Positions 1-18,686 of a stretch of 19,279 nucleotides of DNA are shown in pieces (position 1 is the first letter of the stretch; the number at the start of each line of letters is the position of its first letter). The stretch is from the IMG/VR virus record IMGVR_UViG_2534681764_000019, positions 1-19,279 of that record, one strand, 5' to 3'. The stretch is from a virus. Its lineage: Duplodnaviria > Heunggongvirae > Uroviricota > Caudoviricetes. Below the pieces are notes generated by a model, which was given only the letters and a program-made list of their open reading frames with translations, was not told the origin of the DNA and searched no databases. The position numbers were made by a program, and so were the translations under genes.

Positions 1-1284
1 TTACTTCTTCGCCTCTGCAACCACTTTACTACCCACGCCGCGGTTATTGTATTCCCACATGCGGTTGTAGTTAGTGTCATTCAGATTGCGCTGTATTTCG
101 TCGTTATCATCTACGCTGCCGGTATTACCCGCAAACGGACGATTAGAGATCACCGCATCGGCCCACGGTTTAGCCGTGTTAAAACCTTCGTTGATGGCGC
201 TATCACGGATCACCACCTGACCGTTGGTATTGGCATCAACATCCAGCGAGCGGCCCAGTTGCGCCACACCATCACCGAAAGCATTGAAACGGCTGTTTAC
301 GGCGAGGAAACCGTAGTAAATGTTGGACAGCGTAGCCGGTGCAAACACATACGCTTCTTGCTGAGTACGTGAGTTCACCACGCGGAATTCGGTGTTATCG
401 AACACCACTGCGCCGCGACCAGAAACGATATCCACATCCCCTTCAATGTAGCTGTTGGTCACCAGCGTACGCGGCTGACGGTTGGTTTCCAGACGGTTCT
501 GCACACCGCTGTTGGTGACAAAGAAGGTGTTCTGACGACCGAGAATGTTAACGTTGTTAATCTGTACCTGGTCACCATCAGTACGCAGTGCCACCGCCGG
601 ATGGTTACCTGCATCTACGCTATCGCCCAGCGTGTTTTCGATGGTCAGATTTTGCAGTTGCAGGCCATTGTTTTGTGACCAGAAGACCGCAGAGCAGAGA
701 ACACCGATACTGTCGCTGCGTTTGCTCTGGCAGCTATCGTACATATACCACGCTGGTTTACCTGGCATATATTTGCCGCGCGGGTTGACGTCGTGACGCC
801 AGTCGGCAGGGCTCATGCCACCATCAAGGGAAAGCCCAATCTTCACATCAATCGGTTTTTCACCTGTACCGTACAGAGTAATTCCACCCGGAGCGGCAGG
901 GACATATACCGTTCCCTGATACTCACCAGGCATCACGGCAATATACTGGCGCTTGTTGGTACGCTTGATAATTGCCGCATCTACCGCCGCCTGAATCGTG
1001 GTATGCGTTACACCTTGAGTGCCCGCCGGGCCGACAACAAAGTCAGGTTGCGCAGGCAGGGTAATCGGGGAAGGATTCCACGCTGCAGCACCTGGTGTCA
1101 GGGATGCAAAATAGTGTTGAGCATCGAAATTCTGCGCTTCTTTTGCCGACAGAATCGGGCGAGAAGAGGTACCAGGCGCGGTTTGATCAGAAGGACGTTG
1201 ATCGGGCGGGGTTGAGCTACAGGCGGTCAGCGTCACGCCAAAAGCCAATGCCAGCGCCAGACGGGAAACTGAAAATGTGTTCAC
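1..1284 (-). CDS. ybhC: YbhC-like lipoprotein (pectinesterase-family / acyl-CoA thioesterase), host gene flanking attB-lambda
   Basis: 427-aa ORF with lipoprotein signal and lipobox (MNTFSVSRLALALAFGVTLTAC); recognised from memory as E. coli ybhC, which lies on the gal side of the lambda attachment site; stop codon at window positions 1-3. Confidence 0.85.
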   Translation of the reverse strand: MNTFSVSRLALALAFGVTLTACSSTPPDQRPSDQTAPGTSSRPILSAKEAQNFDAQHYFASLTPGAAAWNPSPITLPAQPDFVVGPAGTQGVTHTTIQAAVDAAIIKRTNKRQYIAVMPGEYQGTVYVPAAPGGITLYGTGEKPIDVKIGLSLDGGMSPADWRHDVNPRGKYMPGKPAWYMYDSCQSKRSDSIGVLCSAVFWSQNNGLQLQNLTIENTLGDSVDAGNHPAVALRTDGDQVQINNVNILGRQNTFFVTNSGVQNRLETNRQPRTLVTNSYIEGDVDIVSGRGAVVFDNTEFRVVNSRTQQEAYVFAPATLSNIYYGFLAVNSRFNAFGDGVAQLGRSLDVDANTNGQVVIRDSAINEGFNTAKPWADAVISNRPFAGNTGSVDDNDEIQRNLNDTNYNRMWEYNNRGVGSKVVAEAKK

Positions 1285-1330
1285 AGGTTGCTCCGGGCTA
1301 TGAAATAGAAAAATGAATCCGTTGAAGCCT

Positions 1331-1345
1331 GCTTTTTTATACTAA
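1331..1345. other. attL core (B-O-P'), 15-bp lambda att common core
   Basis: Exact GCTTTTTTATACTAA; left flank GTTGAAGCCT is the bacterial B arm, right flank GTAGGCATTATAAAAAAGCATTGCTTATCAATTTGTTGCAACGAACAGGTCACTATCAGTCAAAATAAAATCATTATTTGATTTC is the phage P' arm as I recall it. Confidence 0.9.
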
Positions 1346-1390
1346 GTAGGCATTATAAAAAAGCATTGCTTATCAATTTGTTGCAACGAA

Positions 1391-1422
1391 CAGGTCACTA
1401 TCAGTCAAAATAAAATCATTAT
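1391..1422. promoter_or_regulatory. Int arm-type binding sites (P'1-P'3) in the P' arm
   Basis: Tandem CAGGTCACTAT / CAGTCAAAAT / AAATCATTAT motifs matching the arm-type consensus, directly upstream of the int 3' end. Confidence 0.55.
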
Positions 1423-2489
1423 TTGATTTCAATTTTGTCCCACTCCCTGCCTCTGTCATCACGATACTGTGATGCCATGGTGTCCGACTTATGCCCGAGA
1501 AGATGTTGAGCAAACTTATCGCTTATCTGCTTCTCATAGAGTCTTGCAGACAAACTGCGCAACTCGTGAAAGGTAGGCGGATCCCCTTCGAAGGAAAGAC
1601 CTGATGCTTTTCGTGCGCGCATAAAATACCTTGATACTGTGCCGGATGAAAGCGGTTCACGACGAGTAGATGCAATTATGGTTTCTCCGCCAAGAATCTC
1701 TTTGCATTTATCAAGTGTTTCCTTCATTGATATCCCGAGAGCATCAACATGCAATGTTGTTGGGATGGCAATTTTTACGCCTGTTTTGCTTTGCTCGACA
1801 TAAAGATATCCATCTACGATATCAGACCACTTCATTTCGCATAAATCACCAACTCGTTGCCCGGTAACAACAGCCAGTTCCATTGCAAGTCTGAGCCAAC
1901 ATGGTGATGATTCTGCTGCTTGATAAATTTTCAGGTATTCGTCAGCCGTAAGTCTTGATCTCCTTACCTCTGATTTTGCTGCGCGAGTGGCAGCGACAGG
2001 GTTTGTTGTTATATGGCCTTCAGCTATTGCCTCTCGGAATGCATCGCTCAGTGTTGATCTGATTAACTTGGCTGACGCCGCCTTGCCCTCGTCTATGTAT
2101 CCATTGAGCATTGCCGCAATTTCTTTTGTGGTGATGTCTTCAAGTGGAGCATCAGGCAGACCCCTCCTTATTGCTTTAATTTTGCTCATGTAATTTATGA
2201 GTGTCTTCTGCTTGATTCCTCTGCTGGCGAGGATTTTTTCGTAGCGATCAAGCCATGAATGTAACGTAACAGAATTATCACTGTTGATTCTCGCTGTCAG
2301 AGGCTTGTGTTTGTGTCCTGAAAATAACTCAATGTTGGCCTGTATAGCTTCAGTGATTGCTATCCTCCTGTCTCGGCCTAATCCAAACTCTTTACCCGTC
2401 CTTGGGTCCCTGTAGCAGTAATATCCATTGTTTCTTATATAAAGGTTAGGGGGTAAATCCCGGCGCTCATGACTTCTCCTTCTTCCCAT
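1419..2489 (-). CDS. int: Tyrosine integrase (lambda Int)
   Basis: 356-aa ORF MGRRRSHERRDLPPNLYIRNNGYYCYRDPRTGKEFGLGRD..., matches lambda Int in length and sequence as recalled; adjacent to attL. Confidence 0.95.
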   Translation of the reverse strand: MGRRRSHERRDLPPNLYIRNNGYYCYRDPRTGKEFGLGRDRRIAITEAIQANIELFSGHKHKPLTARINSDNSVTLHSWLDRYEKILASRGIKQKTLINYMSKIKAIRRGLPDAPLEDITTKEIAAMLNGYIDEGKAASAKLIRSTLSDAFREAIAEGHITTNPVAATRAAKSEVRRSRLTADEYLKIYQAAESSPCWLRLAMELAVVTGQRVGDLCEMKWSDIVDGYLYVEQSKTGVKIAIPTTLHVDALGISMKETLDKCKEILGGETIIASTRREPLSSGTVSRYFMRARKASGLSFEGDPPTFHELRSLSARLYEKQISDKFAQHLLGHKSDTMASQYRDDRGREWDKIEIK

Positions 2490-2685
2490 TTCTGATCCTC
2501 TTCAAAAGGCTACCTGTTACTGGTCGATTTAAGTCAACCTTTACCGCTGATTCGTGGAACAGATACTCTCTTCCATCCTTAACCGGAGGAGGGAATATCC
2601 TGCATTCGCGTACCCATCGACGAACTGTTTCAAGACTTCTTGGACGTCGCTGGCGTGCGTTCCACTCCTGAAGTGTCAAGTACAT
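2467..2685 (-). CDS. xis: Excisionase (lambda Xis)
   Basis: 72-aa ORF MYLTLQEWNARQRRPRSLETVRRWVRECRIFPPPVKDGREYLFHESAVKVDLNRP..., overlaps int start as in lambda. Confidence 0.95.
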   Translation of the reverse strand: MYLTLQEWNARQRRPRSLETVRRWVRECRIFPPPVKDGREYLFHESAVKVDLNRPVTGSLLKRIRNGKKEKS

Positions 2686-2712
2686 CGCAAAGTCTCCGCA
2701 ATTACACGCAAG

Positions 2713-2732
2713 AAAAAACCGCCATCAGGCGG
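2713..2732 (-). terminator. Putative intrinsic terminator (leftward) between small ORF and xis
   Basis: Minus-strand hairpin GCCGCC-tgat-GGCGG followed by TTTTTT. Confidence 0.35.
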
Positions 2733-2892
2733 CTGGGTGTTCTTTCAGTTCTTCAATTCGAATATTGGTTACGTCTGCATGCGCTATCTGCGCCCATATC
2801 ATCCAGTGGTCATAGCAGTCGTTGATGTTCTCTGCTTCGATAACTCTGTTGAATGGTTCTCCATTCCACTCACCTGTGACTCGGAAGTGCAT
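2725..2892 (-). CDS. Small hypothetical protein, positional equivalent of the lambda 55-codon ORF next to xis
   Basis: 55-aa minus-strand ORF (MHFRVTGEWNGEPFNRVIEAENINDCYDHWMIWAQIAHADVTNIRIEELKEHPAA) with GGAG-like RBS; same spacing from xis as the small ORF in lambda by my recollection of the map. Confidence 0.5.
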   Translation of the reverse strand: MHFRVTGEWNGEPFNRVIEAENINDCYDHWMIWAQIAHADVTNIRIEELKEHPAA

Positions 2893-2940
2893 TTATCATC
2901 TCCATAAAACAAAACTGGCCGTAGCGAGTTCAGATAAAAG

Positions 2941-2959
2941 AAAACCCGCACTCGGCGGG
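2941..2959 (-). terminator. Putative intrinsic terminator (leftward), about 280 nt downstream of the 80-aa gene
   Basis: Minus-strand hairpin CCCGCC-gagt-GCGGG followed by TTTTCTTTT. Confidence 0.4.
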
Positions 2960-3240
2960 TTCGCATTCGTTCAAATTGCGTTTACTTCTTGGCGTTCTGT
3001 TCATCCATATCGATATACCATGGGTTGCTTCCCTTGGGCATGTTTAACGACTGCTCGCGATAGTATCTGATGCGCTCCATGAAATACTCGCGTGAGTGCT
3101 CAGGTTGCTCTCATGATACCTGCTCAGTGATAACAGGTATGTTAAGGCGCTCTCTGTACTCCATGCCTGATGCTGCAAGGTCAACGTTTACCTTGTTCTG
3201 TTTTTCTTTCGATTTCTCGGCGATGTTATGCCTGACATTG

Positions 3241-3483
3241 TCAACCCGCCTCCTTCTGAACATAACGGTTATAAATCAGTCCCTGAGGGCCATAAGGAAG
3301 CGGGATGTGCAACTCCTCTGGTTCAGAAACTATCCATTCCCCGGCCATCTCCGCTGGAGAGGTAATGATAAGTTGTTTGCTAATAAAAGGACCACTCCTC
3401 TCAACAACAAGCTTACCATCTTCATTAATAAAAGCTTGGATGTCAGGTGTGCTTACACACTTGGTGATGCAGCGTTTGAACAT
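3241..3483 (-). CDS. Hypothetical 80-aa protein with its own promoter (moron-like)
   Basis: ORF MFKRCITKCVSTPDIQAFINEDGKLVVERSGPF...; G-rich RBS before the ATG; extended -10 promoter upstream; no family recognised. Confidence 0.55.
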   Translation of the reverse strand: MFKRCITKCVSTPDIQAFINEDGKLVVERSGPFISKQLIITSPAEMAGEWIVSEPEELHIPLPYGPQGLIYNRYVQKEAG

Positions 3484-3514
3484 TTTGTGTCCCCCCCATT
3501 TTATGTACGGGGTA

Positions 3515-3523
3515 ATTATAACA
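3515..3523 (-). promoter_or_regulatory. Extended -10 promoter (TGTTATAAT on minus strand) driving the 80-aa gene
   Basis: Minus-strand sequence TGTGTTATAATTACC lies about 35 nt upstream of the ATG at 3483 in an AT-rich gap; no good -35 seen. Confidence 0.45.
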
Positions 3524-3610
3524 CATTGAAATATAGTAATATTTGACGTAGATTTCTTTTGATCTATAAGCGATTTTTTAATGCTTTTAAGTTATAAATA
3601 CTTGTTTTCA

Positions 3611-4663
3611 TCACCCATCTTGCTGCGGTGCTACTATTGAAAAGTACTCACACCCTTTAGCCCAAATAGTTTTGATAGTTGTCCAACTGACTGGAACCTT
3701 GATTTCGATTCTCCCGCTGCCGTCACAAGTTTCGCAATCATCATCACCAAAGCATTCCGGGCAGCTTATAAACGTAGTTTCTGAAAATTCACCGGATAGC
3801 ACACCCTTAGCGCCATTCTCAGCGGTTAGTTTCTTCGGCACTATAACCCAACCATCCGGAGTTACCGGAGAGTTGCCCGATGGCTCGTTCAACTTGTAAT
3901 TCTGGCTTACAGGTTGGCTACCCTGAAGCATGGCGGCGAGGCAGGCGTTCCAGCCATGCATATATCCAGTAATAGACCCCATCTTATGCCACTTATCTGA
4001 ATGAAAAGCGCTCATGGCACCAAGATAGTCGATATATGAAATTTGTTTATACCTTTCATTTGGGGCTTTCTTTTCTGATGCAGCTACATCATTCTCTATC
4101 ATCTGCGCTTGCGTGATGCTGTGTCGCGGTATGTCTGAGTTGTTCATTCTCGCATCCACATTAGCATCAAACTCGTTATATTCCATCTCTGCCAGGTCAC
4201 CCCAACTAGCCAGCCCAGGTTCGTTTTCATCACCGAAAGCATCCTTGTCTCGCAGGAAACGATAGCGCAAAGCATCACGCTCTATGCTTAAGCGCAATAC
4301 CTTTTCGGCTGTCGCAGCATCGCGCCAGGTATTGAATCCATCTGGACCTTTAACTTCTTCGCGCAATTGATAAAGCTCTGCGTAGATTTCATCAGGCACA
4401 GATACCGTCGCTGGCGGGGCGGCGTAGACCTCAATAATTCCATTATCAATAGGCCATTCTCCATCCTTGAGGTAGTCACTTGTGCCGTCAACTTGCTGTT
4501 CTGCAATGTGGAATGCACCTATTGGTTTTGCTTCCAGCGATGCCAGAGCAATTCGTGCCAGTTCTTCCGCTTCTTCTGCTGGCAGTACAACGTTGCTACC
4601 AGGTCCGTATGTTTCGCGCCACTGCTTGATTGTCAGTAGTCGCTCTTTGGTCATAGTGGTCAT
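3611..4663 (-). CDS. Hypothetical 350-aa protein with C-terminal CxxC...CxxCxGxG zinc-ribbon motif; last gene of the leftward operon
   Basis: ORF starting MTTMTKERLL with strong RBS AAGGAGAG; ATG is 1 nt after the upstream gene's stop; C-terminus CPECFGDDDCETCDGSGRIEIKVP; no family recognised. Confidence 0.7.
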   Translation of the reverse strand: MTTMTKERLLTIKQWRETYGPGSNVVLPAEEAEELARIALASLEAKPIGAFHIAEQQVDGTSDYLKDGEWPIDNGIIEVYAAPPATVSVPDEIYAELYQLREEVKGPDGFNTWRDAATAEKVLRLSIERDALRYRFLRDKDAFGDENEPGLASWGDLAEMEYNEFDANVDARMNNSDIPRHSITQAQMIENDVAASEKKAPNERYKQISYIDYLGAMSAFHSDKWHKMGSITGYMHGWNACLAAMLQGSQPVSQNYKLNEPSGNSPVTPDGWVIVPKKLTAENGAKGVLSGEFSETTFISCPECFGDDDCETCDGSGRIEIKVPVSWTTIKTIWAKGCEYFSIVAPQQDG

Positions 4664-4664
4664 A

Positions 4665-5156
4665 TCACTCTCCTTTGATGCGAATGCCTGTTGCAATGCT
4701 GTTTATGATGCTGTCAGTGCATGGGGTAGAAAGCTGGGCATCTCCAGCAATTTTCATGACCTCAACATCTGCATATCGAATACCGAGGTGTATCAGACCG
4801 GCTATGCCTGACTTAAGCCGAGCATTTTCCATAAATAGAACTTTTGCCCGCTGTTTTTCTGCTTCAAGCTCAACGCGCAGCTTCCCTACCGTTAGCGCAA
4901 TTTCCTCGTTCTCCTGATCGCGGGATTTGATGTATTGCTGGTTCCTTTCCCGTTCATCCAGTAGTGCCAAAGCAACCTTTGGATTAAAGGCAGCAATAAA
5001 TTCAGCGTTGTTTTTCAGAACGTGTTGCGCAATGGCCTGACTACTTAGTCGGACCTCATAACCACGTGCGCCACGGTGTGGTTTATATGAGTCCCAGTCT
5101 CCCCACGTTGCTTTCTCTGCCGCCTCACGCAGTGCCTGATAGTTAATTTTGCTCAT
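4665..5156 (-). CDS. Hypothetical protein, tentatively Ead/Ea22-like; coiled-coil middle region
   Basis: 163-aa ORF MSKINYQALREAAEKATWGDWDSY...; the N-terminal ALREAAEKAT motif resembles prophage Ead/Ea22-like proteins as I recall them; translationally coupled on both sides. Confidence 0.55.
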   Translation of the reverse strand: MSKINYQALREAAEKATWGDWDSYKPHRGARGYEVRLSSQAIAQHVLKNNAEFIAAFNPKVALALLDERERNQQYIKSRDQENEEIALTVGKLRVELEAEKQRAKVLFMENARLKSGIAGLIHLGIRYADVEVMKIAGDAQLSTPCTDSIINSIATGIRIKGE

Positions 5157-5157
5157 G

Positions 5158-5457
5158 TCACATCACCCTGAATCCGTTGCATTTACGTAAGAAATCGCAG
5201 ATATAGCCCTTCATTTTTTCGTGCCAATCTCGATCATTCCCATTGCACCAACCATCAGGTGGAGTCCAGTTTTCTATCAGAGCAGCCATTTTCTTTGCTT
5301 TCGCCGGAGTAGCTGTTGCGGTATCGCAGTAATGACGAGTGTCAACCAACGCATCCATACCATCGATATCAAGTATGCAAAACCATGTGTGATTCGGAAT
5401 TCCTACAGGTGGTATTTGTTGCCCACGTCGGCGTTTATCAATGAGATATACACTCAC
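5158..5457 (-). CDS. Hypothetical 99-aa protein (GTG start)
   Basis: [36 protein letters not shown]...; GTG start overlaps the upstream stop (GTGA); 1-nt gap to the next gene. Confidence 0.5.
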   Translation of the reverse strand: MSVYLIDKRRRGQQIPPVGIPNHTWFCILDIDGMDALVDTRHYCDTATATPAKAKKMAALIENWTPPDGWCNGNDRDWHEKMKGYICDFLRKCNGFRVM

Positions 5458-5981
5458 TGGTTGCCTCCTTTGCGAAGCTGGGCGGCGAATCTCTCAGCAT
5501 CAACAGCGCTTCCGCAATAGGCGGCGCGAGTCATGGAATCCAATTCGTTGCGGTTTTTTCTTACGTATTCCTTCTGGCTTTCAGCAAACAACTCCACACC
5601 CTGCGCCCGTACTTCAGCCAGAAAAGCATCGGTGTCTGGGGTTTTTATTTCGTTAAGCGCATCACTGAATCCACCACGCTCCATACCTAGCTCTGCTTCG
5701 TAATCGGCATCGAATGCAGCGTCTTTGCAGAACTTCTTCAGCTTTGCATTCTCCGCCGCCAGCGCTGAAAACTTCTCGTGTGCCAACTTAACAGTCGAAT
5801 CAGCCTGCTTAATTGAATCAATCGCTTTCTGCTGGTCTTCGGACAGAGCCGAAATCTTGGCCTCCGCTTCAGCAAATTTACGCACCAGATATTCAGCGTT
5901 TGTTTCGTTAACCTTTAAATCTCGTGGGATGCATTTACCTTTTAGAAAACCATCCATCTCAATTAGTGACATTTGTTTCAT
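5454..5981 (-). CDS. Hypothetical coiled-coil protein (about 175 aa)
   Basis: [36 protein letters not shown]...; ATG at 5981 overlaps the upstream stop as ATGA; GGGAAG RBS; a GTG 18 nt upstream is an alternative start. Confidence 0.55.
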
Positions 5982-6160
5982 TTCTTCCCACTCCGCCACA
6001 TCGCATTCAGATATTTGTTTTGATTTACTGACGGAAAAGAATTTCTCTTAAGCAATTCCTCTCTCGATGGCATTGGCTTTACGCGTTGGCGAATAATCAT
6101 TTCTGCCGGAAGAATGCCGGGATTGTATGCAAGTCCTCTCATGGTAAATTCCTCAGTCAT
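5978..6160 (-). CDS. Small hypothetical protein (about 60 aa)
   Basis: [43 protein letters not shown]...; start overlaps the upstream gene's stop and stop overlaps the next start (ATGA); start choice is uncertain. Confidence 0.4.
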
Positions 6161-6446
6161 TACTGATAGCGCCATAGCGTGAGCGGTAATTACGCAGGCG
6201 CGGGTCAATTTCAGGGAAGTGGGTGTATGTGGCTTTGCGGAATGGTCGGATTGATGTCTGGTAAATTCGCTCTCGTTCTTCTTTCTCTGCAAGCCATATA
6301 CAATGGCGAAATTCCTTTTCCTCTTTCGTTTCCTGCGGTAGCGACATTATCAGGTCGTAGTTTTTTCTGAATTTATCCAGCACCTCCGATACGGAATTGC
6401 CGGAACAGCGGCGCGGGTCATCCGCACCATACTGAGGCGCTGGCAT
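6153..6446 (-). CDS. Hypothetical 97-aa protein
   Basis: [49 protein letters not shown]...; AGGAG RBS 7 nt upstream; 13 nt after the HNH stop. Confidence 0.55.
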
Positions 6447-6459
6447 GATTTTCTCCTGA

Positions 6460-6939
6460 TTAAATTGCGTGAATAGCGTGACGAGGGAAGGGGAGAGTTA
6501 CTGGCTCCTCGTCTGGGTAGATAGGTTTGTTATGTTTGTGCCACTCGACATGACATGACTTGCAGAGCCACATCACATCGGTTGGTTTGCTGTAGTCGCA
6601 TTGGTGCGCCTGTGGTTTACATTCTGATCCGCAGCACTCACATTGTGGTGGTCGGATTAGCTTACCGTCGCGCAAAAAATTACCCACAATGATGTGGGCT
6701 TTTCTTTTCCATGGGTTGCTCTGAATGAACCGCTTTTTGGCTGCGTTACACCGTTCTCTTCCGCGTTCCGATGATTGATATTCTCTCCTTGCTGATACTC
6801 GATGTGGCAATCCAGCGCGTTCTTTGTCGTATTCAGCCAGGCAAGCCCGGCAAGCGGCAGTTAATCCATCTCTGGATGCTCTTCTGATTTGAAAGTCCCT
6901 TTCTTCCTTCTGTTGATGGCATCTTGAGCAGACTTTCAT
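6460..6939 (-). CDS. Putative HNH (His-Me finger) endonuclease with Cys-rich zinc site
   Basis: 159-aa ORF MKVCSRCHQQKEERDF...; CxxC/CC pairs and a C-terminal AH...WLCKSCHVEWH pattern resembling HNH motifs; AGGAG RBS; directly downstream of ssb. Confidence 0.5.
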   Translation of the reverse strand: MKVCSRCHQQKEERDFQIRRASRDGLTAACRACLAEYDKERAGLPHRVSARREYQSSERGRERCNAAKKRFIQSNPWKRKAHIIVGNFLRDGKLIRPPQCECCGSECKPQAHQCDYSKPTDVMWLCKSCHVEWHKHNKPIYPDEEPVTLPFPRHAIHAI

Positions 6940-6948
6940 ATTCAGCTC

Positions 6949-7422
6949 CTAGAACGGAATATCCGAATCGTCGAAGTTCATAGGTGGTTCGCTGTGATTC
7001 CCCTGCTGCTGAGATTGCTGTCTTTGTTGCTGACCGTTATTTCGCTGATGTGAAGACTGTTCATTGCCTCCTTGTTTGCCACCAAGCATTTGCATGGTTC
7101 CACCAACGCCCACGATGACTTCGGTAGTGAACCGATCCTGTCCGCTTTGATCCTGCCATTTTCTTGTCCGCAATTTGCCTTCAAGATAAACCTCTGAGCC
7201 TTTTCGCAGATATTCGCTGGCAATTTCTGCCAGTTTCCCGCTCATTACCACACGGTGCCACTCCGTCTGCTCCTTTTGCTCTCCAGTTTGCTTATCACGC
7301 CATTGTTCTGACGTAGCAACTGTAAGGTTTGCAAATGCCGTTCCTGATGGTGAATATCTGATTTCTGGATCATGCCCAAGGCGACCAATAATGATCACCT
7401 TATTTACGCCTCTGCTTGCCAT
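6949..7422 (-). CDS. ssb: Single-stranded DNA-binding protein
   Basis: 157-aa [26 protein letters not shown]... with Gly/Gln-rich linker and acidic tail ending DDSDIPF, typical of SSB. Confidence 0.85.
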
Positions 7423-8130
7423 TTATGCCGCCTGTTTTAGCTCGTTAACTCTGATGTTCATTACCTGAACGCATTTAGCCTGCGCCTCCTCGTTTCCAGC
7501 CATTAATTGCCAGTCACGCTGATAACGCTCGATGAGTTTTTTCTTGTCAGTTTCTGTTGACGCATAATCGCTGAAGTCTTTCAGGATTTGTTCGCAGTCA
7601 ACCGATGGAGATTTCTGGTTGGTATTTTCTGGTGATGGTTTGTTATCTGATGCTGGGATTGCCCATCCCGGCAGTGATGGAGGGAGCCAGTAAAATCCTG
7701 TTCCATCCTTCAGTTTTGCCCTGTGCCACCCATGCTTTTTATCGAGAGATGTTTGTGCGAAACCTTCCTCAAGGTTATACAGATACCGACCGATTCCCCA
7801 CTGAACGGCAGCACGCTTCATTGCACCTGAACGACCACCTTTGACGGCTTCTACCTGCGTGTTTTCAGCAGCATCCCATTTGGTTACCCATTCGGAATCA
7901 ATCCTGATTGATATGCCGCATTCAACGCCGCCGTTGTTGGGAATATCGCGGTATTCATTGCGCCATCCTGCTTTGCCGCAAACATCGTCCAGGCGTTTCA
8001 TGATTGCCCTGTTCGTGACATAAGCCAGCACCATAGCCCACACTTTTCCATCGCGTGTTTTACCGCTTTGCTGTATTCGCCATTCGATATCTTCAGGGCT
8101 GAATGGCTCATCGAATTTATTCAAATCCAT
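7423..8130 (-). CDS. Single-strand annealing protein, Sak/Rad52-like (replaces lambda Bet/Exo/Gam)
   Basis: 235-aa ORF; central GGRSGAMKRAAVQWGIGRYLYNL motif resembles Rad52/Sak-family annealases as recalled; stop abuts the ssb start (TAA then ATG); GAGGTG RBS. Confidence 0.55.
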   Translation of the reverse strand: MDLNKFDEPFSPEDIEWRIQQSGKTRDGKVWAMVLAYVTNRAIMKRLDDVCGKAGWRNEYRDIPNNGGVECGISIRIDSEWVTKWDAAENTQVEAVKGGRSGAMKRAAVQWGIGRYLYNLEEGFAQTSLDKKHGWHRAKLKDGTGFYWLPPSLPGWAIPASDNKPSPENTNQKSPSVDCEQILKDFSDYASTETDKKKLIERYQRDWQLMAGNEEAQAKCVQVMNIRVNELKQAA

Positions 8131-8138
8131 AATTCACC

Positions 8139-8309
8139 TCAGAATGGACATGGCCCAAGGAAATAACGCTGGTTTAATACTTCGACTCTGGACAAATTAA
8201 GGCATACCCGCATTCCTTCGCGGTCACCATTATGGCGATACCAGAGAGCTTTCTGCGTGTACATGCGTCTCTGTAACTTGCTCTCCTTCACTGTGGTTGC
8301 AAGTGACAT
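8139..8309 (-). CDS. Small hypothetical ORF (56 aa)
   Basis: MSLATTVKESKLQRRMYTQKALWYRHNGDREGMRVCLNLSRVEVLNQRYFLGPCPF with strong RBS GAAGGAG; overlaps the next small ORF in another frame. Confidence 0.35.
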   Translation of the reverse strand: MSLATTVKESKLQRRMYTQKALWYRHNGDREGMRVCLNLSRVEVLNQRYFLGPCPF

Positions 8310-8388
8310 GAATATCTCCTTCGTTACCGATTAATTCTTTCATCTGACGAATGAATTCTTCGTCTGACCAGTTATCTGTAAAACTCAT
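8230..8388 (-). CDS. Small hypothetical ORF (52 aa)
   Basis: MSFTDNWSDEEFIRQMKELIGNEGDIHVTCNHSEGEQVTETHVHAESSLVSP; start overlaps the upstream ORF's stop as ATGA. Confidence 0.3.
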   Translation of the reverse strand: MSFTDNWSDEEFIRQMKELIGNEGDIHVTCNHSEGEQVTETHVHAESSLVSP

Positions 8389-8537
8389 TTCCTGCGATAC
8401 CACGGAAGGTTGATAGCTGATTTCATAGCTTTATTTGCTTCAAGCCACATTTTTGAATCACCAATAAATCTGGCTATTACTGCTTTGTTCTGTGCAGCAC
8501 GAAGCATCTGGTGATTAATGGCTATTTCATTGCGCAT
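8385..8537 (-). CDS. Small ORF (50 aa), Kil-like by position only
   Basis: MRNEIAINHQMLRAAQNKAVIARFIGDSKMWLEANKAMKSAINLPWYRRK with GGAGG RBS; overlaps the 3' end of the cIII-like ORF as kil overlaps cIII in lambda. Confidence 0.35.
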   Translation of the reverse strand: MRNEIAINHQMLRAAQNKAVIARFIGDSKMWLEANKAMKSAINLPWYRRK

Positions 8538-8656
8538 AACGCCTCCAGTTGTTTCTTTGCTGCTCTGATTAATTGTTTAACTCGGCGTGATAATTCAGAT
8601 TCGTGCGGGTAGAAAGCGGACATGACGCCGCTACCCGCGAGCTGAAAGTGCATCAT
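8522..8656 (-). CDS. CIII-like small protein (44 aa), divergent from lambda CIII
   Basis: MMHFQLAGSGVMSAFYPHESELSRRVKQLIRAAKKQLEALCAMK with AAGGAG RBS; resembles lambda CIII (MQYAIAGWPVAGCPSESLLERITRKLRDGWKRLIDIL...) in length, position and central basic helix, as recalled. Confidence 0.45.
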   Translation of the reverse strand: MMHFQLAGSGVMSAFYPHESELSRRVKQLIRAAKKQLEALCAMK

Positions 8657-8731
8657 GGGTAACTCCTTATATTTGATTGCATAACGAAAACGCCTAGAGT
8701 GAAGCGTTATTGGTATGCGGTAAAGCCGCGC

Positions 8732-9043
8732 TTAGGCGGCTGATGTTTCTTCTTTCAGGCTTTCGAGATATTTACGTGGGTCGTCGTAACATTGGCATTC
8801 GCTGTACCAATCCACCCAGCGATCAGTAAGCCCCATCTCTGATAAATCTTCATCGGTAAGGCTCTCATCCCACATCTCAAGGCCGTTAGCATTGCAGTAA
8901 TCAGGCTTGATGTTGTTGTCATACTGAAAGGCGTCATAATCAGCCAGTGCGTCCATCAGGCGAACACCCTCTTCAACACTTGCCACTTCTGCAATGAACG
9001 GTTTCATAGGTACTTGCGGGATATGCCAGACACGTAATTTCAT
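8732..9043 (-). CDS. Hypothetical 103-aa protein, positional equivalent of lambda ea10
   Basis: ORF MKLRVWHIPQVPMKPFIAEVASVEEG... with GGAGGA RBS; an upstream in-frame ATG at 9097 lacks an RBS. Confidence 0.55.
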   Translation of the reverse strand: MKLRVWHIPQVPMKPFIAEVASVEEGVRLMDALADYDAFQYDNNIKPDYCNANGLEMWDESLTDEDLSEMGLTDRWVDWYSECQCYDDPRKYLESLKEETSAA

Positions 9044-9218
9044 ATTTCCTCCGTCAAAAAAATTGCCCTCACACTGGAGGGCAAAGAAGATTTCCAATAA
9101 TCAGAACAAGTCGGCTCCTGTTTAGTTACGAGCGACATTGCTCCGTGTATTCACTCGTTGGAATGAATACACAGTGCAGTATTTATTCTGTTGTTTATGC
9201 TAAAAATAAAGGCCACCA

Positions 9219-9419
9219 TCAGGCAGCCTTGTTATTCTGTTTACCAAGTTCTCTGGCAATCATTGCCGTCGTTCGTATTGCCCATTTATCGACATATTTC
9301 CCATCCTCCATTACAGGAAACATTTCTTCAGGCTTAACCATGCATTCCGATTGCAGCTTGCATCCATTGCATCGCTTGAATTGTCCACACCATTGATTTT
9401 TATCAATAGTCGTAGTCAT
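9219..9419 (-). CDS. ral: Restriction alleviation protein Ral
   Basis: 66-aa ORF MTTTIDKNQWCGQFKRCNGCKLQSECMVKPEEMF...; matches lambda Ral in length and sequence as recalled. Confidence 0.8.
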   Translation of the reverse strand: MTTTIDKNQWCGQFKRCNGCKLQSECMVKPEEMFPVMEDGKYVDKWAIRTTAMIARELGKQNNKAA

Positions 9420-9489
9420 ACGGATAGTCCTGGTATTGTTCCATCACATCCTGAGGATGCTCTTCGAACTCTTCAAAATCTTCTTCCAT
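9403..9489 (-). CDS. 28-codon ORF (lambda orf28 equivalent), highly acidic
   Basis: MEEDFEEFEEHPQDVMEQYQDYPYDYDY with GAGGTGAG RBS; overlaps the ral start; same size and position as the small ORF beside ral in lambda. Confidence 0.45.
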   Translation of the reverse strand: MEEDFEEFEEHPQDVMEQYQDYPYDYDY

Positions 9490-9497
9490 ATCTCACC

Positions 9498-9824
9498 TCA
9501 AATAAGTGGTTTGCTGCCTAATTTCATTTTCTGGCGACCAACACAAGTCACACCCATTTCACTGCGTGGCTTGCTGTACCATGTGCGCTGATTCTTGCGC
9601 TCAATACGTTGCAGGTTGTTTTCAATCTGTTCGTGGTATTCAGCCAGCACCGTAAGGTCTATCGGATTCAGTGCGCTTTCTACTCGTAATTTCGGTTTGC
9701 GATTCAGCGAGAGAATAGGGCGGTTAACTGGTTTTGCGCTTACCCCAACCAACAGGGGATTTGCTGCTTTCCATTGAGCCTGTTTCTCTGCGCGACGTTC
9801 GCGGCGGCGTGTTTGTGCATCCAT
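9498..9824 (-). CDS. N: Antitermination protein N (lambda-type arginine-rich motif; C-terminus appears divergent)
   Basis: 108-aa ORF MDAQTRRRERRAEKQAQWKAANPLLVGVSAKPVNRPILSLNRKPK...; N-terminal part matches lambda N as recalled; about 200-nt leader containing nutL. Confidence 0.85.
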   Translation of the reverse strand: MDAQTRRRERRAEKQAQWKAANPLLVGVSAKPVNRPILSLNRKPKLRVESALNPIDLTVLAEYHEQIENNLQRIERKNQRTWYSKPRSEMGVTCVGRQKMKLGSKPLI

Positions 9825-10022
9825 CTGGATTCTCCTGTCAGTTAGCTTTGGTGATTGGATGGCCGGCGCTGAACCCCGGCTTACTGGTTAGAGCGCCCGC
9901 ACTACCAGTGACGCTGTCTTGAGGCGCAGATTGGTTACTGCTTGCCATGAGCGCTGTTTATACATTGGTCGAGCATCAGCCTGCTCATTCATCCAATCCC
10001 AAAGCCTTCTGCTTTGAATGCT

Positions 10023-10053
10023 GCCCTTCTTCAGGGCTTAATTTTTAAGAGCC
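10023..10053 (-). promoter_or_regulatory. nutL (boxB hairpin plus boxA-like element)
   Basis: Minus strand reads GCTCTTAAAAATTAAGCCCTGAAGAAGGGCAG; boxB GCCCTGAAGAAGGGC is at 10023-10037. Confidence 0.8.
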
Positions 10054-10092
10054 TCACCTTCATGGTGGTCAGTGCGTCCTGCTGATGCGCTC

Positions 10093-10155
10093 AGTATCAC
10101 CGCCAGTGGTATTTATGTCAACACCGCCAGAGATAATTTATCACCGCAGATGGTT
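10093..10155 (-). promoter_or_regulatory. pL promoter with operators OL1-OL3
   Basis: OL1 TATCACCGCCAGTGGTA (10095-10111), OL2 CAACACCGCCAGAGATA (10119-10135), OL3 TATCACCGCAGATGGTT (10139-10155); minus-strand -35 TTGACA and -10 GATACT. Confidence 0.9.
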
Positions 10156-10311
10156 ATCTGTATGTTTTTTATATAGATTTATTTTTTGCAGGGTTGCGTG
10201 GCTTGGGAGGTGATCGAGAGATCTGAATTGCGATGTTTAGTGAGTTGTATCTATCAATTTTTCAATAAATACAATTTGTTAAGGTGTTGTTAGGTGTGTG
10301 GAGCGAGAGGC

Positions 10312-10337
10312 AAAGAAAACCCGGCACTGGGGCCGGG
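10312..10337 (-). terminator. Intrinsic terminator downstream of the ParA-like gene (tImm analogue)
   Basis: Minus-strand hairpin CCCGGC-cccagt-GCCGGG followed by TTTTCTTT, 10 nt past the stop at 10347-10349. Confidence 0.65.
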
Positions 10338-10346
10338 TTGGTTAAT

Positions 10347-11369
10347 TTATAGTTTAACCACCATCCTATCAATGGCTTCTAAGCAAGATTGTTTATATGG
10401 GGCATTAACTTTTACCCTTCTGTTCATAACTCGTACGCTCCCTGTTGGTAGGATCGAAAATGGACATCCTTTAGCAAAGGCAACAACACCAGTTGTCTGA
10501 AAATCTTTAATATTTACCACTCCCTCTTCAATATTTTCGAAGTCGAAAATTTCAGGGTTACTTAGTAATAGTTGCTGAATATCATTATCGATTGATTTCA
10601 GAACTGCGGCATAGGCTGATGCAGGCCCCATATACTGTGTAAGACGGTTTTTTGCGATCATATGCACTTTGGGTAGTGGTCTGCTCACCGCGGTAAGTTT
10701 GTTTGCAAATGCGTAGGATGCATAAATATCAGATGGCAACTTTAATCCATAAATCAAAGAGAAAGCATTTTGAATGGCGCGACGAGAGGAATCATCAGCC
10801 ATAACTGGCAAGATGAGCTTTTCTACAGCAGCTAATGCTATTTGAGTATAAATTGAAAAACTAGGATTACAGTCAATAAATAAAACATCGTACTCATCAT
10901 TTAGATCTTTAATAAGATCATTAATCCAATCAATGATGCTTACCCATGCATTTGTTCCTGGAATCTGCTGATTAGCAAGAGTGTTGATGGCGTTTGCTTG
11001 AAGCTCAAGAAGCGGGTCACCGCATACCAACGATATATTGGCTGGAATATGTTCGTTGAATTTTTTTGGGTGTGTCAAATAATCGTGGGCATCAACAATG
11101 GGTTTTTGATAAGGCGTCGGGAGGCGCATTTGGAAGTAGCCACCCAAAGTACATCTATTATTTATATCATGCCTAGTCAATAAGTTTATGCTTCCATTAC
11201 CTATTAACCCCCCAAGAAAAAGCTCTGACAAGTTTGCCTGTGGGCACACATCAATAACCAACACGCGCTCAAGCGGGTGAATTTCTGCATATCTGCAAAT
11301 AGCTTGAAATGACAGGCTTGTTTTCCCTGTTCCTCCCTTGTTGTTCCATATAGCATATTTCTTCATCAT
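10347..11369 (-). CDS. ParA/MinD-family P-loop ATPase with about 80-90 aa C-terminal extension, in the position lambda uses for rexA-rexB
   Basis: 340-aa ORF MMKKYAIWNNKGGTGKTSLS...; deviant Walker A KGGTGKT, A' motif VLVIDVCPQANLS, Walker B-like VLFIDCNP; AGGAG RBS 6 nt before the ATG at 11369; an in-frame ATG at 11441 has no RBS. Confidence 0.75.
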   Translation of the reverse strand: MMKKYAIWNNKGGTGKTSLSFQAICRYAEIHPLERVLVIDVCPQANLSELFLGGLIGNGSINLLTRHDINNRCTLGGYFQMRLPTPYQKPIVDAHDYLTHPKKFNEHIPANISLVCGDPLLELQANAINTLANQQIPGTNAWVSIIDWINDLIKDLNDEYDVLFIDCNPSFSIYTQIALAAVEKLILPVMADDSSRRAIQNAFSLIYGLKLPSDIYASYAFANKLTAVSRPLPKVHMIAKNRLTQYMGPASAYAAVLKSIDNDIQQLLLSNPEIFDFENIEEGVVNIKDFQTTGVVAFAKGCPFSILPTGSVRVMNRRVKVNAPYKQSCLEAIDRMVVKL

Positions 11370-11404
11370 AAACTCCTGGTTAACGATGTCATTGCTGGTT
11401 AATG

Positions 11405-11486
11405 TTTTACCATTGGTAAAGTGGTGCACCAAGAGTGACACGGTAAACCAAATAGATCAAGACTTTTGGTAAACGATTTACCAGTG
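11405..11486. promoter_or_regulatory. Operator-like inverted repeats between cI and the ParA-like gene
   Basis: TTTACCA-T-TGGTAAA (11406-11420), GGTGCACC (11422-11429), half-site GGTAAAC (11442-11448), TGGTAAA-CGA-TTTACCA (11466-11482); a minus-strand TTGGTG-17nt-TAAAAC promoter-like element overlaps them. Confidence 0.4.
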
Positions 11487-11537
11487 GTGACATCGATAAC
11501 CGAAAAAGACTGCATTTCTGCAACCTGTTTCACACAA

Positions 11538-12254
<717 letters not shown>

Positions 12255-12261
12255 TTAAATC

Positions 12262-12327
12262 TATCACCGCAAGGGATAAATATCTAACACCGTGCGTGTT
12301 GACTATTTTACCTCTGGCGGTGATAAT
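12262..12327. promoter_or_regulatory. OR3-OR2-OR1 operators with divergent pRM and pR promoters
   Basis: OR3 TATCACCGCAAGGGATA (12262-12278), OR2 TAACACCGTGCGTGTTG (12285-12301), OR1 TACCTCTGGCGGTGATA (12309-12325); pR -35 TTGACT (12299-12304), -10 GATAAT (12322-12327). Confidence 0.9.
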
Positions 12328-12342
12328 GGTTGCATGTACTAA

Positions 12343-12552
<210 letters not shown>

Positions 12553-12559
12553 ATAACCC

Positions 12560-12592
12560 CGCTCTTACACATTCCAGCCCTGAAAAAGGGCA
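12560..12592 (+). promoter_or_regulatory. nutR (boxA CGCTCTTAC and boxB GCCCTGAAAAAGGGC)
   Basis: Both motifs present in order just downstream of cro. Confidence 0.85.
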
Positions 12593-12670
12593 TCAAATTA
12601 AACCACACCTATGGTGTATGCATTTATTTGCATACATTCAATCAATTGTTATCTAAGGAAATACTTACAT

Positions 12671-12949
12671 ATGCAACTTACAAGTACTCGCAAGAAAGCG
12701 AATGCAATTACAAGCAACATCCTGAATCGAATTGCTGTACGTGGTCAGCGAAAGGTTGCCGACGCGTTAGGGATTAATGAATCGCAAATTTCGCGATGGA
12801 AAGACAGCTTCATCCCAAAAATGGGAATGCTTCTGGCTGTTCTTGAATGGGGTGTTGAAGACGAGGAGTTGGCGGAACTGGCTAAGCAAGTAGCCAGAAT
12901 GCTGACAAAAGAAAAAGCCCCGAAGAACGGCGAATTCTTCGAGGCCTGA
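12671..12949 (+). CDS. cII: CII-like transcriptional activator, divergent from lambda CII
   Basis: 92-aa ORF MQLTSTRKKANAITSNILNRIAVRGQRKVADALGINESQISRWKDSFIPKMGMLLAVLEWGVEDEEL...; shares the SQISRWK and MLLAVLEWGV core with lambda CII but differs elsewhere; leader TTGTTATCTAAGGAAATACTTACATATG is lambda-like. Confidence 0.85.
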   Translation: MQLTSTRKKANAITSNILNRIAVRGQRKVADALGINESQISRWKDSFIPKMGMLLAVLEWGVEDEELAELAKQVARMLTKEKAPKNGEFFEA

Positions 12950-12983
12950 TGTAGAAAGACTGGATCAATCCACAGGAGTCATT

Positions 12984-14581: not shown

Positions 14582-14868
14582 CGGGCAAAGAGGCAATTAT
14601 TCATTACCTGGGGACGCATAAGAGCTTCTGTGCACAAGACGTTGCCGCGGTAACAGGCGCAACCGTAACCAGCATAAATCAGGCTGCGGCTAAAATGGCG
14701 CGGGCAGGAATCCTGGTCGTTGATGGTAAGGTCTGGCGAACGGTGTATTACCGGTTCGCTACCAGAGAAGAACGGGAAGGAAAGGTGAGCACGAATCTGA
14801 TTTTTAAGGAGTGTCGCCAGAGTGCCGCGATGAAACGGGTATTGGCGGTATATGGAGTTAAAAGATGA
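14578..14868 (+). CDS. ren: Ren protein
   Basis: 96-aa ORF MTGKEAIIHYLGTHKSFCAQDVAAVTGATV..., lambda Ren as recalled; overlaps the P stop. Confidence 0.9.
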   Translation: MTGKEAIIHYLGTHKSFCAQDVAAVTGATVTSINQAAAKMARAGILVVDGKVWRTVYYRFATREEREGKVSTNLIFKECRQSAAMKRVLAVYGVKR

Positions 14869-14893
14869 CCATCTACATCACTGAGCTAATAAC

Positions 14894-14922
14894 AGGCCTG
14901 CTGGTAATCGCAGGCCTTTTTA
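14894..14922 (+). terminator. tR2-like intrinsic terminator between ren and ninB
   Basis: Hairpin AGGCCTGC-tggtaatc-GCAGGCCT followed by TTTTTATTT. Confidence 0.75.
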
Positions 14923-14941
14923 TTTGGGGGAGAGGGAAGTC

Positions 14942-16737: not shown

Positions 16738-17341
16738 ACCAGCGCGAAGACGATGTAAAAACGATGAATGTCGGGAATGGTTTCACCCTGCATTCGCTAA
16801 TCAGTGGTGGTGCTCTCCAGAGTGTGGAACCAAGATAGCACTCGAACGACGAAGTAAAGAACGCGAAAAAGCGGAAAAAGCAGCAGAGAAGAAACGACGA
16901 CGAGAGGAGCAGAAACAGAAAGATAAACTTAAGATTAGAAAACTCGCCTTAAAGCCCCGCAGTTACTGGATTAAACAAGCCCAACAAGCCGTAAACGCCT
17001 TCATCAGAGAAAGAGACCGCGACTTACCATGTATCTCTTGCGGAACGCTCACGTCTGCTCAGTGGGATGCCGGACATTACCGGACAACTGCTGCGGCACC
17101 TCAACTCCGATTTGATGAACGCAATATTCACAAGCAATGCGTGGTGTGCAACCAGCACAAAAGCGGAAATCTCGTTCCGTATCGCGTCGAACTGATTAGC
17201 CGCATCGGGCAGGAAGCAGTAGACGAAATCGAATCAAACCATAACCGCCATCGCTGGACTGTCGAAGAGTGCAGGGCCATCAAGGCGGAGTATCAGCAGA
17301 AACTCAAAGACCTGAGAAACAGCAGAAGTGAGGCCGCATGA
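16727..17341 (+). CDS. ninG: NinG (Rap, recombination-associated structure-specific endonuclease)
   Basis: 204-aa [45 protein letters not shown]..., lambda NinG as recalled. Confidence 0.9.
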
Positions 17342-17397
17342 CGTTCTCAGTAAAAACCATTCCAGATCACAAGGGAGAAGGCGCATGGGCATAAGAG
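17338..17397 (+). pseudogene. ninH: Truncated ninH remnant (19 codons) at the junction with a non-lambda Q module
   Basis: [21 protein letters not shown] then stop; the first 10 residues match the lambda NinH N-terminus as recalled; overlaps the Q-like start. Confidence 0.5.
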
Positions 17398-17873
17398 AAC
17401 TAAACCTCACCAAAGAACAGCACGAGTGGCTGAATGGCTGGCTTGAACTGTGGGGCGCATGGGTTTATTCAGGTCGTCTGGAAAAGCGCATGAGCAGCGT
17501 AATAGCTAAGTTCATGGAGAGCGTAGAGCCGGGAAGAGTTATGACAAGGCCAATGTGTAATGATGATGATGGAATGTTGATTTCTCAGGTCGTCGATTCC
17601 GTCATGTACATTGACAAGAAAGCCTTTGGCATCCTCCTCAGCTACTACGCCCACGGCTCTTCCAAGCACGCCATTGCATCTTACTATCATCGCGTCGCAA
17701 GACCTCGCAAGATGTTATGCCGGGGCGGCGGGCGCATTCAAAAACCATCGCTCGCAACCTGTCGACGGGAAGTTGACGAAATCCTCAATGCCTCGTTGTT
17801 TATGATTTACCCGGCTCTGGATAGTGCGTTTAAAAATCGGAAACGTGTAGAGAAAATTAAACATGTAGCATAG
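17385..17873 (+). CDS. Late-gene antiterminator Q, short non-lambda type (possibly Q21-like)
   Basis: 162-aa ORF MGIRELNLTKEQHEWLNGWLELWGAWVYSGRLEKRMSSV... with AGGGAGAAGG RBS; not lambda Q as I recall it; position between nin and lysis genes; family assignment is from memory. Confidence 0.7.
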   Translation: MGIRELNLTKEQHEWLNGWLELWGAWVYSGRLEKRMSSVIAKFMESVEPGRVMTRPMCNDDDGMLISQVVDSVMYIDKKAFGILLSYYAHGSSKHAIASYYHRVARPRKMLCRGGGRIQKPSLATCRREVDEILNASLFMIYPALDSAFKNRKRVEKIKHVA

Positions 17874-17879
17874 AACGTG

Positions 17880-17908
17880 TTGACATCATTGAGCAAATGA
17901 GCAACACT
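17880..17908 (+). promoter_or_regulatory. Candidate late promoter pR' (-35 TTGACA) just after the Q stop
   Basis: TTGACA at 17880-17885; only a weak -10 candidate 17-19 nt downstream; placement expected from lambdoid organisation. Confidence 0.3.
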
Positions 17909-18362: not shown

Positions 18363-18686
18363 ATGAAGATGCCAGAAAAACATGACCTGTTAGCCGCCAT
18401 TCTCGCGGCAAAGGAACAAGGCATCGGGGCAATCCTTGCGTTTGCAATGGCGTACCTTCGCGGCAGATATAATGGCGGTGCGTTTACAAAAACAGTAATC
18501 GACGCAACGATGTGCGCCATTATCGCCTGGTTCATTCGTGACCTTCTCGACTTCGCCGGACTAAGTAGCAATCTCGCTTATATAACGAGCGTGTTCATCG
18601 GCTACATCGGTACTGACTCGATTGGTTCGCTTATCAAACGCTTCGCTGCTAAAAAAGCCGGAGTAGAAGATGGTGGAAATCAATAA
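18363..18686 (+). CDS. S: Holin/antiholin S (dual-start motif Met-Lys-Met)
   Basis: 107-aa [46 protein letters not shown]..., lambda S as recalled. Confidence 0.95.

Follow-up and report, generated by a model that had tools for sequence, protein, structure and literature searches.

The window analysed here (the whole stretch of 19,279 nucleotides (nt), positions 1 to 19,279 of IMG/VR record IMGVR_UViG_2534681764_000019) is an E. coli chromosomal prophage with lambda immunity, and positions 6446 to 4665 of its minus strand carry five closely packed genes. In all probability (we estimate roughly 85%), this region consists of the end of a known abc2 recombination module followed by mosaic accessory genes of the ea region of a lambdoid prophage. 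The initial annotation had described a tightly coupled cassette of five unknown genes. Its observation of the packing is correct, but the object is an ordinary, catalogued stretch of mosaic lambdoid prophage rather than a novel machine of five genes: Abc2 is encoded by gene 1, and the remaining genes belong to families that had already been catalogued. The five open reading frames (ORFs) lie where they had been reported, with gene 2 being 54 rather than about 60 amino acids (aa) long, and a sixth gene continues the series:

6446..6153, minus strand: abc2 (gene 1), 97 aa, ATG start
6142..5978, minus strand: DUF2737 gene (gene 2), 54 aa, ATG start, isoelectric point (pI) 11
5981..5454, minus strand: EaE-family modular coiled-coil gene (gene 3), 175 aa, ATG start
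5457..5158, minus strand: DUF7739 gene (gene 4), 99 aa, GTG start, a sporadic insert
5156..4665, minus strand: Ead/Ea22-family gene (gene 5), 163 aa, ATG start
4663..3611, minus strand: EaA-like gene (gene 6), 350 aa

Homology identifies gene 1 as Abc2, a P22-type anti-RecBCD protein. The match to Pfam PF11043 runs from end to end (positions 1-97 of 97, E 4.9e-64, 213 bits, cut-off 25). The protein shares 93.8% identity with P22 abc2 and aligns at 97 of 97 residues with the Abc2 chain of PDB entry 8b1t_A (E 2.2e-58; also 8b1u; ~92-94% identity). In PHROGs it matches phrog_656, 'abc2 anti-RecBCD' (E 1.2e-54), which is filed in the category 'moron, auxiliary metabolic gene and host takeover'. 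Residues 3-66 of Abc2 constitute the RecC-contacting helical region, and Pro68 engages the host protein PpiB (PMC9836394). The window protein departs from 8b1t_A at just two places (L5Q and A65S) in residues 3-66, which were modelled on RecC, and P68 is kept. As with every biochemical activity considered here, binding of RecC and modification of RecBCD by this phage's Abc2 are predictions from homology. A scan for distant Abc2 relatives in one-genome-per-species contigs returned just six loci, all from Enterobacteriaceae.

Immediately upstream of abc2 lie three genes that complete the recombination module:

7423..8130, minus strand: Rad52-type single-strand annealing protein with an Erf-like C-terminus (Pfam PF04098, E 8.7e-26)
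6949..7422, minus strand: phage SSB (Pfam PF00436, E 1.7e-38)
6460..6939, minus strand: HNH-type endonuclease, 159 aa with 12 Cys (phrog_2340 'endonuclease', E 1.9e-46)

The C-terminal 79 aa of the annealing protein are 63% identical to P22 Erf, and RefSeq labels homologues of the 159-aa nuclease as 'HNH endonuclease'. The annealing protein, SSB, nuclease and abc2 genes are contiguous, with gaps of 0, 9 and 13 nt. An ES18-type lambdoid recombination module has been defined as the combination of an anti-RecBCD protein, an SSB, a nuclease and an annealing protein (Genome Res 2025, PMC12315714). By this definition abc2 is identifiable as the last member of such a module and not as a separate cassette gene. 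The same survey (PMC12315714) does not count orf56/DUF2737 as a member, although it is almost inseparable from abc2 in the loci related to the window.

Abc2 would act here by stopping the switching of RecBCD by Chi (PMC9836394), so that RecBCD is diverted to the phage annealing system, which would use RecBCD-processed ends (PMC9836394, PMC12315714). Such a diversion would favour phage recombination and late replication. Chi sites (GCTGGTGG) occur only twice in the window, at 18884-18891 and 19114-19121 on the plus strand in the lysis region, and none is near the recombination module. This placement fits the scarcity of Chi reported near anti-RecBCD modules (PMC12315714), while the window's Chi count is not significant, at least two sites occurring in 14 of 200 shuffled sequences.

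The gene order of the region is that of P22 (NC_002371), erf-abc1-abc2-orf56-eaE-orf45-eaF-eaD-eaI-eaA-...-xis-int, and the orientation is also the same. Homology between the two is segmental and links orf56 to gene 2, EaE to gene 3, EaD to gene 5 and EaA to gene 6, whereas the heads and C-terminal domains of EaE and EaD differ from those of their window counterparts. The place of the DUF7739 gene is occupied in P22 by eaF (DUF5448), a member of an unrelated family. Missing from the window are abc1 and arf, both present in P22; in turn, it has SSB and HNH nuclease genes, neither of which occurs in P22. The exo-xis region of lambda (PMC10834534, PMC7093339) takes up the same operon position, from the recombination genes to xis. 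The window resembles lambda in its int, xis and immunity regions, and gene 5 has an Ea22 N-terminus, a coiled-coil core and a GIRIKGE end. In contrast, lambda uses Gam/Exo/Bet where the window encodes Abc2, a Rad52-type protein, SSB and HNH, and lambda orf60a, orf63, orf61 and orf73 are absent from the window.

The chained stop and start codons noted initially were confirmed, with two refinements. A 10-nt spacer separates abc2 from gene 2, the abc2 TGA lying, as read from the sequence, within the GAGGAA ribosome-binding site of gene 2; and the tight packing extends past 4665 into gene 6, across a 1-nt gap preceded by AAGGAG. Genes 2 and 3 overlap by ATGA, genes 3 and 4 by GTGA with a perfect AAGGAGG ahead, and genes 4 and 5 are separated by 1 nt. 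A scan of the minus strand from 6446 to 4665 revealed neither a sigma-70-like promoter nor a terminator-like hairpin. An alternative start for gene 3, the GTG at 5999, was rejected: homologues and RefSeq begin at the ATG at 5981.

Of the coding strand, 99.9% is taken up by complete ORFs 50 aa or longer; in 1000 dinucleotide-shuffled sequences this coverage averaged 36% and reached 87% at most. Median ratios of non-synonymous to synonymous substitution rates (dN/dS) against homologous alleles are 0.14 for gene 1, 0.22 for gene 2 and 0.25 for gene 4, and 0.20 and 0.29 for segments of genes 3 and 5, respectively. Because coverage exceeds that of the shuffles and dN/dS is low, genes 1 to 5 are to be regarded as real protein-coding genes under purifying selection. 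That some of the ORFs could be fortuitous open frames, or what is left of decayed genes in a defective prophage, might be argued from the long antisense ORFs, which cover 70% of that strand, and from the nearby theta-like gene and gene 6, which are annotated as pseudogenes in RefSeq NZ_CP141863. We consider this explanation practically negligible. All five genes have dN/dS values of 0.14-0.29, each has a strong Pfam or PHROGs profile match, and a ribosome-binding site stands at the right distance before every start. Moreover, NZ_CP141863 contains a copy of the region that is 99.7% identical, in which all five genes are intact and annotated as coding sequences, under the names phage anti-RecBCD protein, DUF2737 family protein, hypothetical protein (twice) and ead/Ea22-like family protein.

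Alignment places gene 3 in the P22 EaE family of coiled-coil proteins. It has no Pfam match, and its PHROGs matches (phrog_14548, 614, 492 and 368) are to segments. A match to an NCBIfam coiled-coil model was discarded as spurious (20 bits against a cut-off of 450). With P22 EaE it shares 39% identity over 76 aa (BLASTP, E 7e-6), including the TPATDAFLAE motif and the AAQLRKG tail. An alignment of 25 relatives shows a near-invariant head followed by a coiled coil that varies in length and sequence, and then the TPATDAFLAE motif, a hypervariable insert and a conserved tail. P115, T117, D118, A119 and E123 are invariant in all 25 sequences, among them P22 EaE and the protein of a distant bat-gut siphovirus. 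Gene 3 carries the TPATDAFLAE(V/M)RAQ motif and the AAQLRKG tail on either side of the variable insert and is located downstream of orf56, the combination by which the family is recognized. At 90% identity its relatives fall into more than 7,978 clusters. The AlphaFold2 model is elongated and all-helical, with one long helix over residues 28-89 and, towards the C-terminus, a helical hairpin over residues 117-170 (predicted local distance difference test score, pLDDT, 73; predicted template-modelling score 0.35).

Gene 5 can be recognized as homologous to lambda Ea22 and P22 EaD, from which it departs in its C-terminal domain. It matches Pfam PF13935 (Ead_Ea22; E 5.8e-32, 111.6 bits), bearing out the Ead/Ea22-like N-terminal motif reported in the initial annotation, which had nevertheless stated that none of the genes matched a lambda gene; that statement does not stand. 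Identity to lambda Ea22 is 51% over residues 1-103, with 37 of 43 residues identical in the coiled-coil core, and the core is 76% identical to that of P22 EaD over 42 aa. The terminal residues GIRIKGE are common to gene 5 and lambda Ea22, while P22 EaD ends in GIKVKGE. No alignment to Ea22 was obtained past residue 103 except for the last few residues, and the lambda-type C-terminal domain, a mixed alpha-beta dimer solved by nuclear magnetic resonance, was not found in gene 5. The earlier prediction of two coiled-coil proteins is supported by this core and by helix 28-89 of gene 3. The EaE and Ea22 families are built alike, with constant ends and a hypervariable interior.

Gene 6 has no Pfam match. 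It matches phrog_60, resembles P22 EaA at its N-terminus and carries at its C-terminus a CxxCxGxG, DnaJ-like zinc-finger motif (CPECFGDDDCETCDGSGRIE). It is intact in the window, while NZ_CP141863 has a shorter hypothetical protein and a DUF551 pseudogene fragment.

Gene 4 matches Pfam PF24881 (DUF7739; E 1.3e-18, 67.8 bits, cut-off 27) and phrog_1239 (E 3.1e-54). Its AlphaFold2 model is a small alpha/beta domain (pLDDT 86.5). Foldseek searches against PDB and BFVD gave nothing at E <= 0.001, with the CdiI, DMP12 and YfbM immunity and DNA-mimic folds considered, and sequence searches of PDB with genes 3, 4 and 5 returned nothing usable. A role as a DNA mimic was rejected, the protein being basic (pI 8.3). 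The family is small: clustering at 90% identity gives 45 clusters, and 72 clusters at 50% identity were counted among 1.84 billion representatives. Its members are stand-alone proteins; the few longer profile matches were discarded as fusion or assembly artefacts or low-complexity noise. DUF7739 occurs in 431 of 5,426 complete E. coli genomes, in nine of 80 EaE-anchored loci and in none of six species-representative loci, and 64 of 80 DUF7739 loci have an Ea22-type N-terminus next. This distribution points to an optional, sporadic insert. Matches to the gene were also seen on plasmids, possibly phage-plasmids, in 71 of 465 places, as against just nine places each for abc2 and DUF2737. No literature on DUF7739 was found.

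A check of whether the five genes are conserved as a unit gave a divided answer. At the level of alleles the unit is refuted; at the level of families, where the order is kept, it is refuted only in part. The 1.78-kb five-gene stretch has 383 partial matches in 50,697 phage records, none of which covers 80% of it, and a 3.35-kb query including the flanks matches in part 2,828 of the 5,426 complete E. coli genomes, just one of which covers at least 80% of it. The exact five-gene combination occurs in one of these genomes, with gene 4 being optional, and in no phage record, while the DNA of single genes is found far more widely (abc2 in 1,100 and DUF2737 in 1,368 complete genomes). A depth profile over 317 related loci shows that abc2, DUF2737 and roughly the opening 40 codons of gene 3 are shared as one block (5860-6440). 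Depth falls sharply within gene 3 at about 5860, 5580 and 5460, within gene 5, where wide sharing is limited to the coiled-coil core (4860-4980) and the initial 19 codons, and again within gene 6. The mosaic breakpoints thus fall inside genes 3, 5 and 6. The order abc2, DUF2737, EaE-like gene, Ead-like gene appears robust at the family level and not at the allele level, the same synteny being present with diverged alleles in Stx2_716, UAB_Phi20, Shimwellia and Intestinirhabdus.

Two short junctions at the ends of genes 3 and 5 recur in many contexts:

5454..5472, minus strand: junction AAAGGAGGCAACCAGTGA, with the gene 3 tail KGGNQ and its stop, the next ribosome-binding site and a GTG start overlapping the TGA
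4661..4685, minus strand: junction GGCATTCGCATCAAAGGAGAGTGA(T/G)ATG, with the gene 5 tail GIRIKGE and its stop, a ribosome-binding site and the next start

The first was found in 108 distinct contexts, before at least eight different downstream starts, and the second in 31 distinct contexts with varied downstream genes. Where DUF7739 lies directly behind DUF2737, the 3' end of DUF2737 carries an acquired AAAGGAGGCAAGCAGTGA junction. The forms AAAGGAGGCAACCAGTGA and AAAGGAGAGTGA.ATG were seen ahead of many unrelated genes, and the GTG start of lambda ea22 (VSEIN...) matches GTGAGCGAAATTA, a start type that follows the first junction in related loci. We infer that the conserved junctions are portable joints, which would link inserted genes translationally and supply homology for recombination between phages. 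A 'linker sequence' idea for lambdoid phages was reportedly put forward by Clark et al. in 2001 for HK620, and our inference fits it. The junctions offer a concrete picture, at the sequence level, of how accessory genes may be swapped in lambdoid early-left operons with translation kept linked.

The surroundings are those of a lambda-type prophage integrated at the lambda attachment site, adjoining ybhC (1..1284), which is followed by a lambda-type int and by a xis 97% identical to that of lambda. Upstream of genes 1 to 5, gp17 and Kil genes accompany N and ral; cI, Cro, cII, O and P were recognized as well. The early-left operon begins with the following features:

10121..10093, minus strand: pL promoter TTGACA-17-GATACT, from a promoter scan and direct reading, with lambda-identical oL operators
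10037..10023, minus strand: nutL boxB GCCCTGAAGAAGGGC, from direct reading; the pL-nutL feature spans 10023..10121
9824..9498, minus strand: N gene (Pfam N36)
9419..9219: ral (anti-restriction), elsewhere in the operon, away from genes 1-5

Genes 1 to 5 are co-oriented and lie ~3.6-5.4 kb downstream of the lambda-identical pL/nutL, in agreement with the accessory position in the early-left operon that had been proposed for them. The anatomy of the operon suggests that they are transcribed from pL as the distal part of the N-antiterminated early-left operon.

Taken together, genes 2 to 6 would represent a local version of the P22 'ea' region or the lambda exo-xis region, in which non-essential accessory genes occupy a row of slots. 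Short conserved junctions, each made up of the tail of the upstream protein, the next ribosome-binding site and an overlapping or abutting stop and start, would join these slots. They would keep every new insert translationally linked to its neighbour and offer homology for recombination between related phages, and the extreme mosaicism would be explained because this homology lets related phages recombine. Lambda Ea22 is a pro-lysogenic tetramer, with tetramerization and the pro-lysogenic phenotype known just for the lambda and phi24B proteins (PMC10834534, PMC7093339), and lambda ea22 is dispensable for plaque formation (PMC10695390). By analogy, genes 3 and 5 most likely encode oligomeric coiled-coil scaffolds whose variable domains face host proteins and tune the choice between lysis and lysogeny, gene 3 less firmly and only probably so.

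Several points weigh against this account of the region. The scaffold idea rests solely on analogy with lambda Ea22; translational coupling across the junctions is deduced from their geometry alone; and the literature found demonstrates a function for genes 2 to 5 in no phage. In addition, the near-perfect adjacency of abc2, DUF2737 and the EaE-type head could tie DUF2737 and the EaE-type gene functionally to Abc2 instead of leaving them as independent accessory genes. The IMG/VR locus sets consist of the best 80 matches per query without deduplication, and their counts are descriptive only.

Gene 2 matches Pfam PF10930 (DUF2737) at positions 1-52 of 53 (E 2.6e-31, 107.7 bits) and is 75% identical to P22 orf56, which is located directly after abc2 in that phage. 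DUF2737 comes next in 78 of 80 abc2-anchored IMG/VR loci, and abc2 precedes it in 79 of 79 DUF2737-anchored loci. All six species-representative loci (E. coli, Escherichia sp., Shimwellia and Intestinirhabdus) read abc2, DUF2737, EaE-like gene, and P22, UAB_Phi20 and Stx2_716 have the same adjacency of the first two. The 10-nt spacing of the window, where the ribosome-binding site of DUF2737 contains the stop codon of abc2, is found in 62 of 78 abc2-anchored and 79 of 79 DUF2737-anchored loci. An EaE-type head stands straight after DUF2737 in 48 of 77 and 75 of 77 loci, the place being taken otherwise by an Ead head, DUF7739 or another gene. The number of phage records with Abc2 (225) nearly equals that with full-length DUF2737 (223). 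Even the bat-gut siphovirus with the most distant Abc2, 33% identical, has an EaE-like gene two genes downstream. On these grounds abc2, DUF2737 and the EaE-type gene could be a conserved three-gene functional unit, in which DUF2737 and possibly the EaE head are unrecognized factors of the Abc2 hijack of RecBCD, comparable to Abc1 and Arf of P22.

We regard such a unit as unlikely, although it is the alternative to which we give the most weight. The alleles do not appear to be co-adapted: relative to the window, Stx2_716 has Abc2 at 61% and DUF2737 at 93% identity, and P22 has 94% and 75%, indicating that neighbouring abc2 and DUF2737 alleles assort independently. A 300-nt insert separates the two genes in 16 of 78 abc2-anchored loci, and behind the bat-gut Abc2 the next gene is DUF5405 instead of DUF2737. 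The C-terminal half of DUF2737 (residues 23-54) is found at ~70-75% identity in small proteins of ~480 records of lytic Jerseyvirus and Kagunavirus phages, which gave no Abc2 match by tblastn; because this half is found in lytic phages lacking an Abc2 match, DUF2737 also exists independently of abc2. The adjacency may also merely reflect a missing recombination joint between abc2 and DUF2737. In plasmid experiments by K. Murphy, Abc2 alone is said to modify RecBCD, which also counts against the unit. A more specific version, in which DUF2737 and perhaps the EaE head serve as cofactors or regulators of the hijack by Abc2, RecBCD and PpiB, and the hypervariable parts of EaE and Ea22 are arms-race surfaces binding host factors or defence proteins, is somewhat more doubtful again. 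If this version were true, the lambdoid recombination module, in which recent surveys see no unexplained genes, would gain further members. At one of the lytic-phage loci, the only one inspected (Salmonella phage LSPA1, L322, 2941-3096), the DUF2737-half gene lies near NinH-family and nin-type genes.

The suggestion that the region is a site for anti-restriction or host-takeover genes holds in part. Abc2 fits the term host takeover through its PHROGs category, while genes 2 to 5 match no anti-restriction family (Ral, Ard, Ocr, Lar and similar) in Pfam, PHROGs or NCBIfam, and the ral gene of this prophage lies elsewhere. Genes 2 to 6 and the HNH protein gave no match to PADLOC defence-system models, and no anti-defence work was found in the literature on Ea22-like proteins. 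It is accordingly improbable, and far more so than the unit discussed above, that all five genes act together as a single operon dedicated to anti-restriction or anti-defence. The five genes as a single unit of any kind were rejected on the arrangement counts and the independent assortment of alleles.

We therefore prefer the reading of the region as a module end followed by mosaic ea genes. Every gene has a public family name and the kind of region is well known, so that it matters little as a discovery; interest is low because the region is ordinary and already catalogued. A by-product that may be useful is the near-obligate adjacency of abc2 and DUF2737, which is not discussed in the recombination-module literature found; DUF2737 itself receives only incidental mention.

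Some further features of the prophage lie outside this region. Lambda has rexA and rexB between cI and oL/pL. In the window, the slot between the lambda-type cI and the lambda-identical oL/pL (10347-11602, minus strand) holds a gene for a 364-aa ParA/AAA_31-like ATPase (Pfam PF13614, E 1.3e-16; no PADLOC match) and an overlapping 67-aa ORF. The ATPase may be an uncharacterized prophage exclusion or defence gene. A HolE/Hot-like gene (DNA polymerase III theta subunit) at ~2982-3263 on the minus strand, between xis and the ea genes, is split by an internal stop; this is the theta-like gene annotated as a pseudogene in NZ_CP141863. Two transfer RNA (tRNA) genes were detected with Rfam at 17965-18117 on the plus strand, between Q (17328..17873) and the holin gene (18363..18686), and Stx-type lambdoid phages carry tRNAs at the same place between Q and holin.

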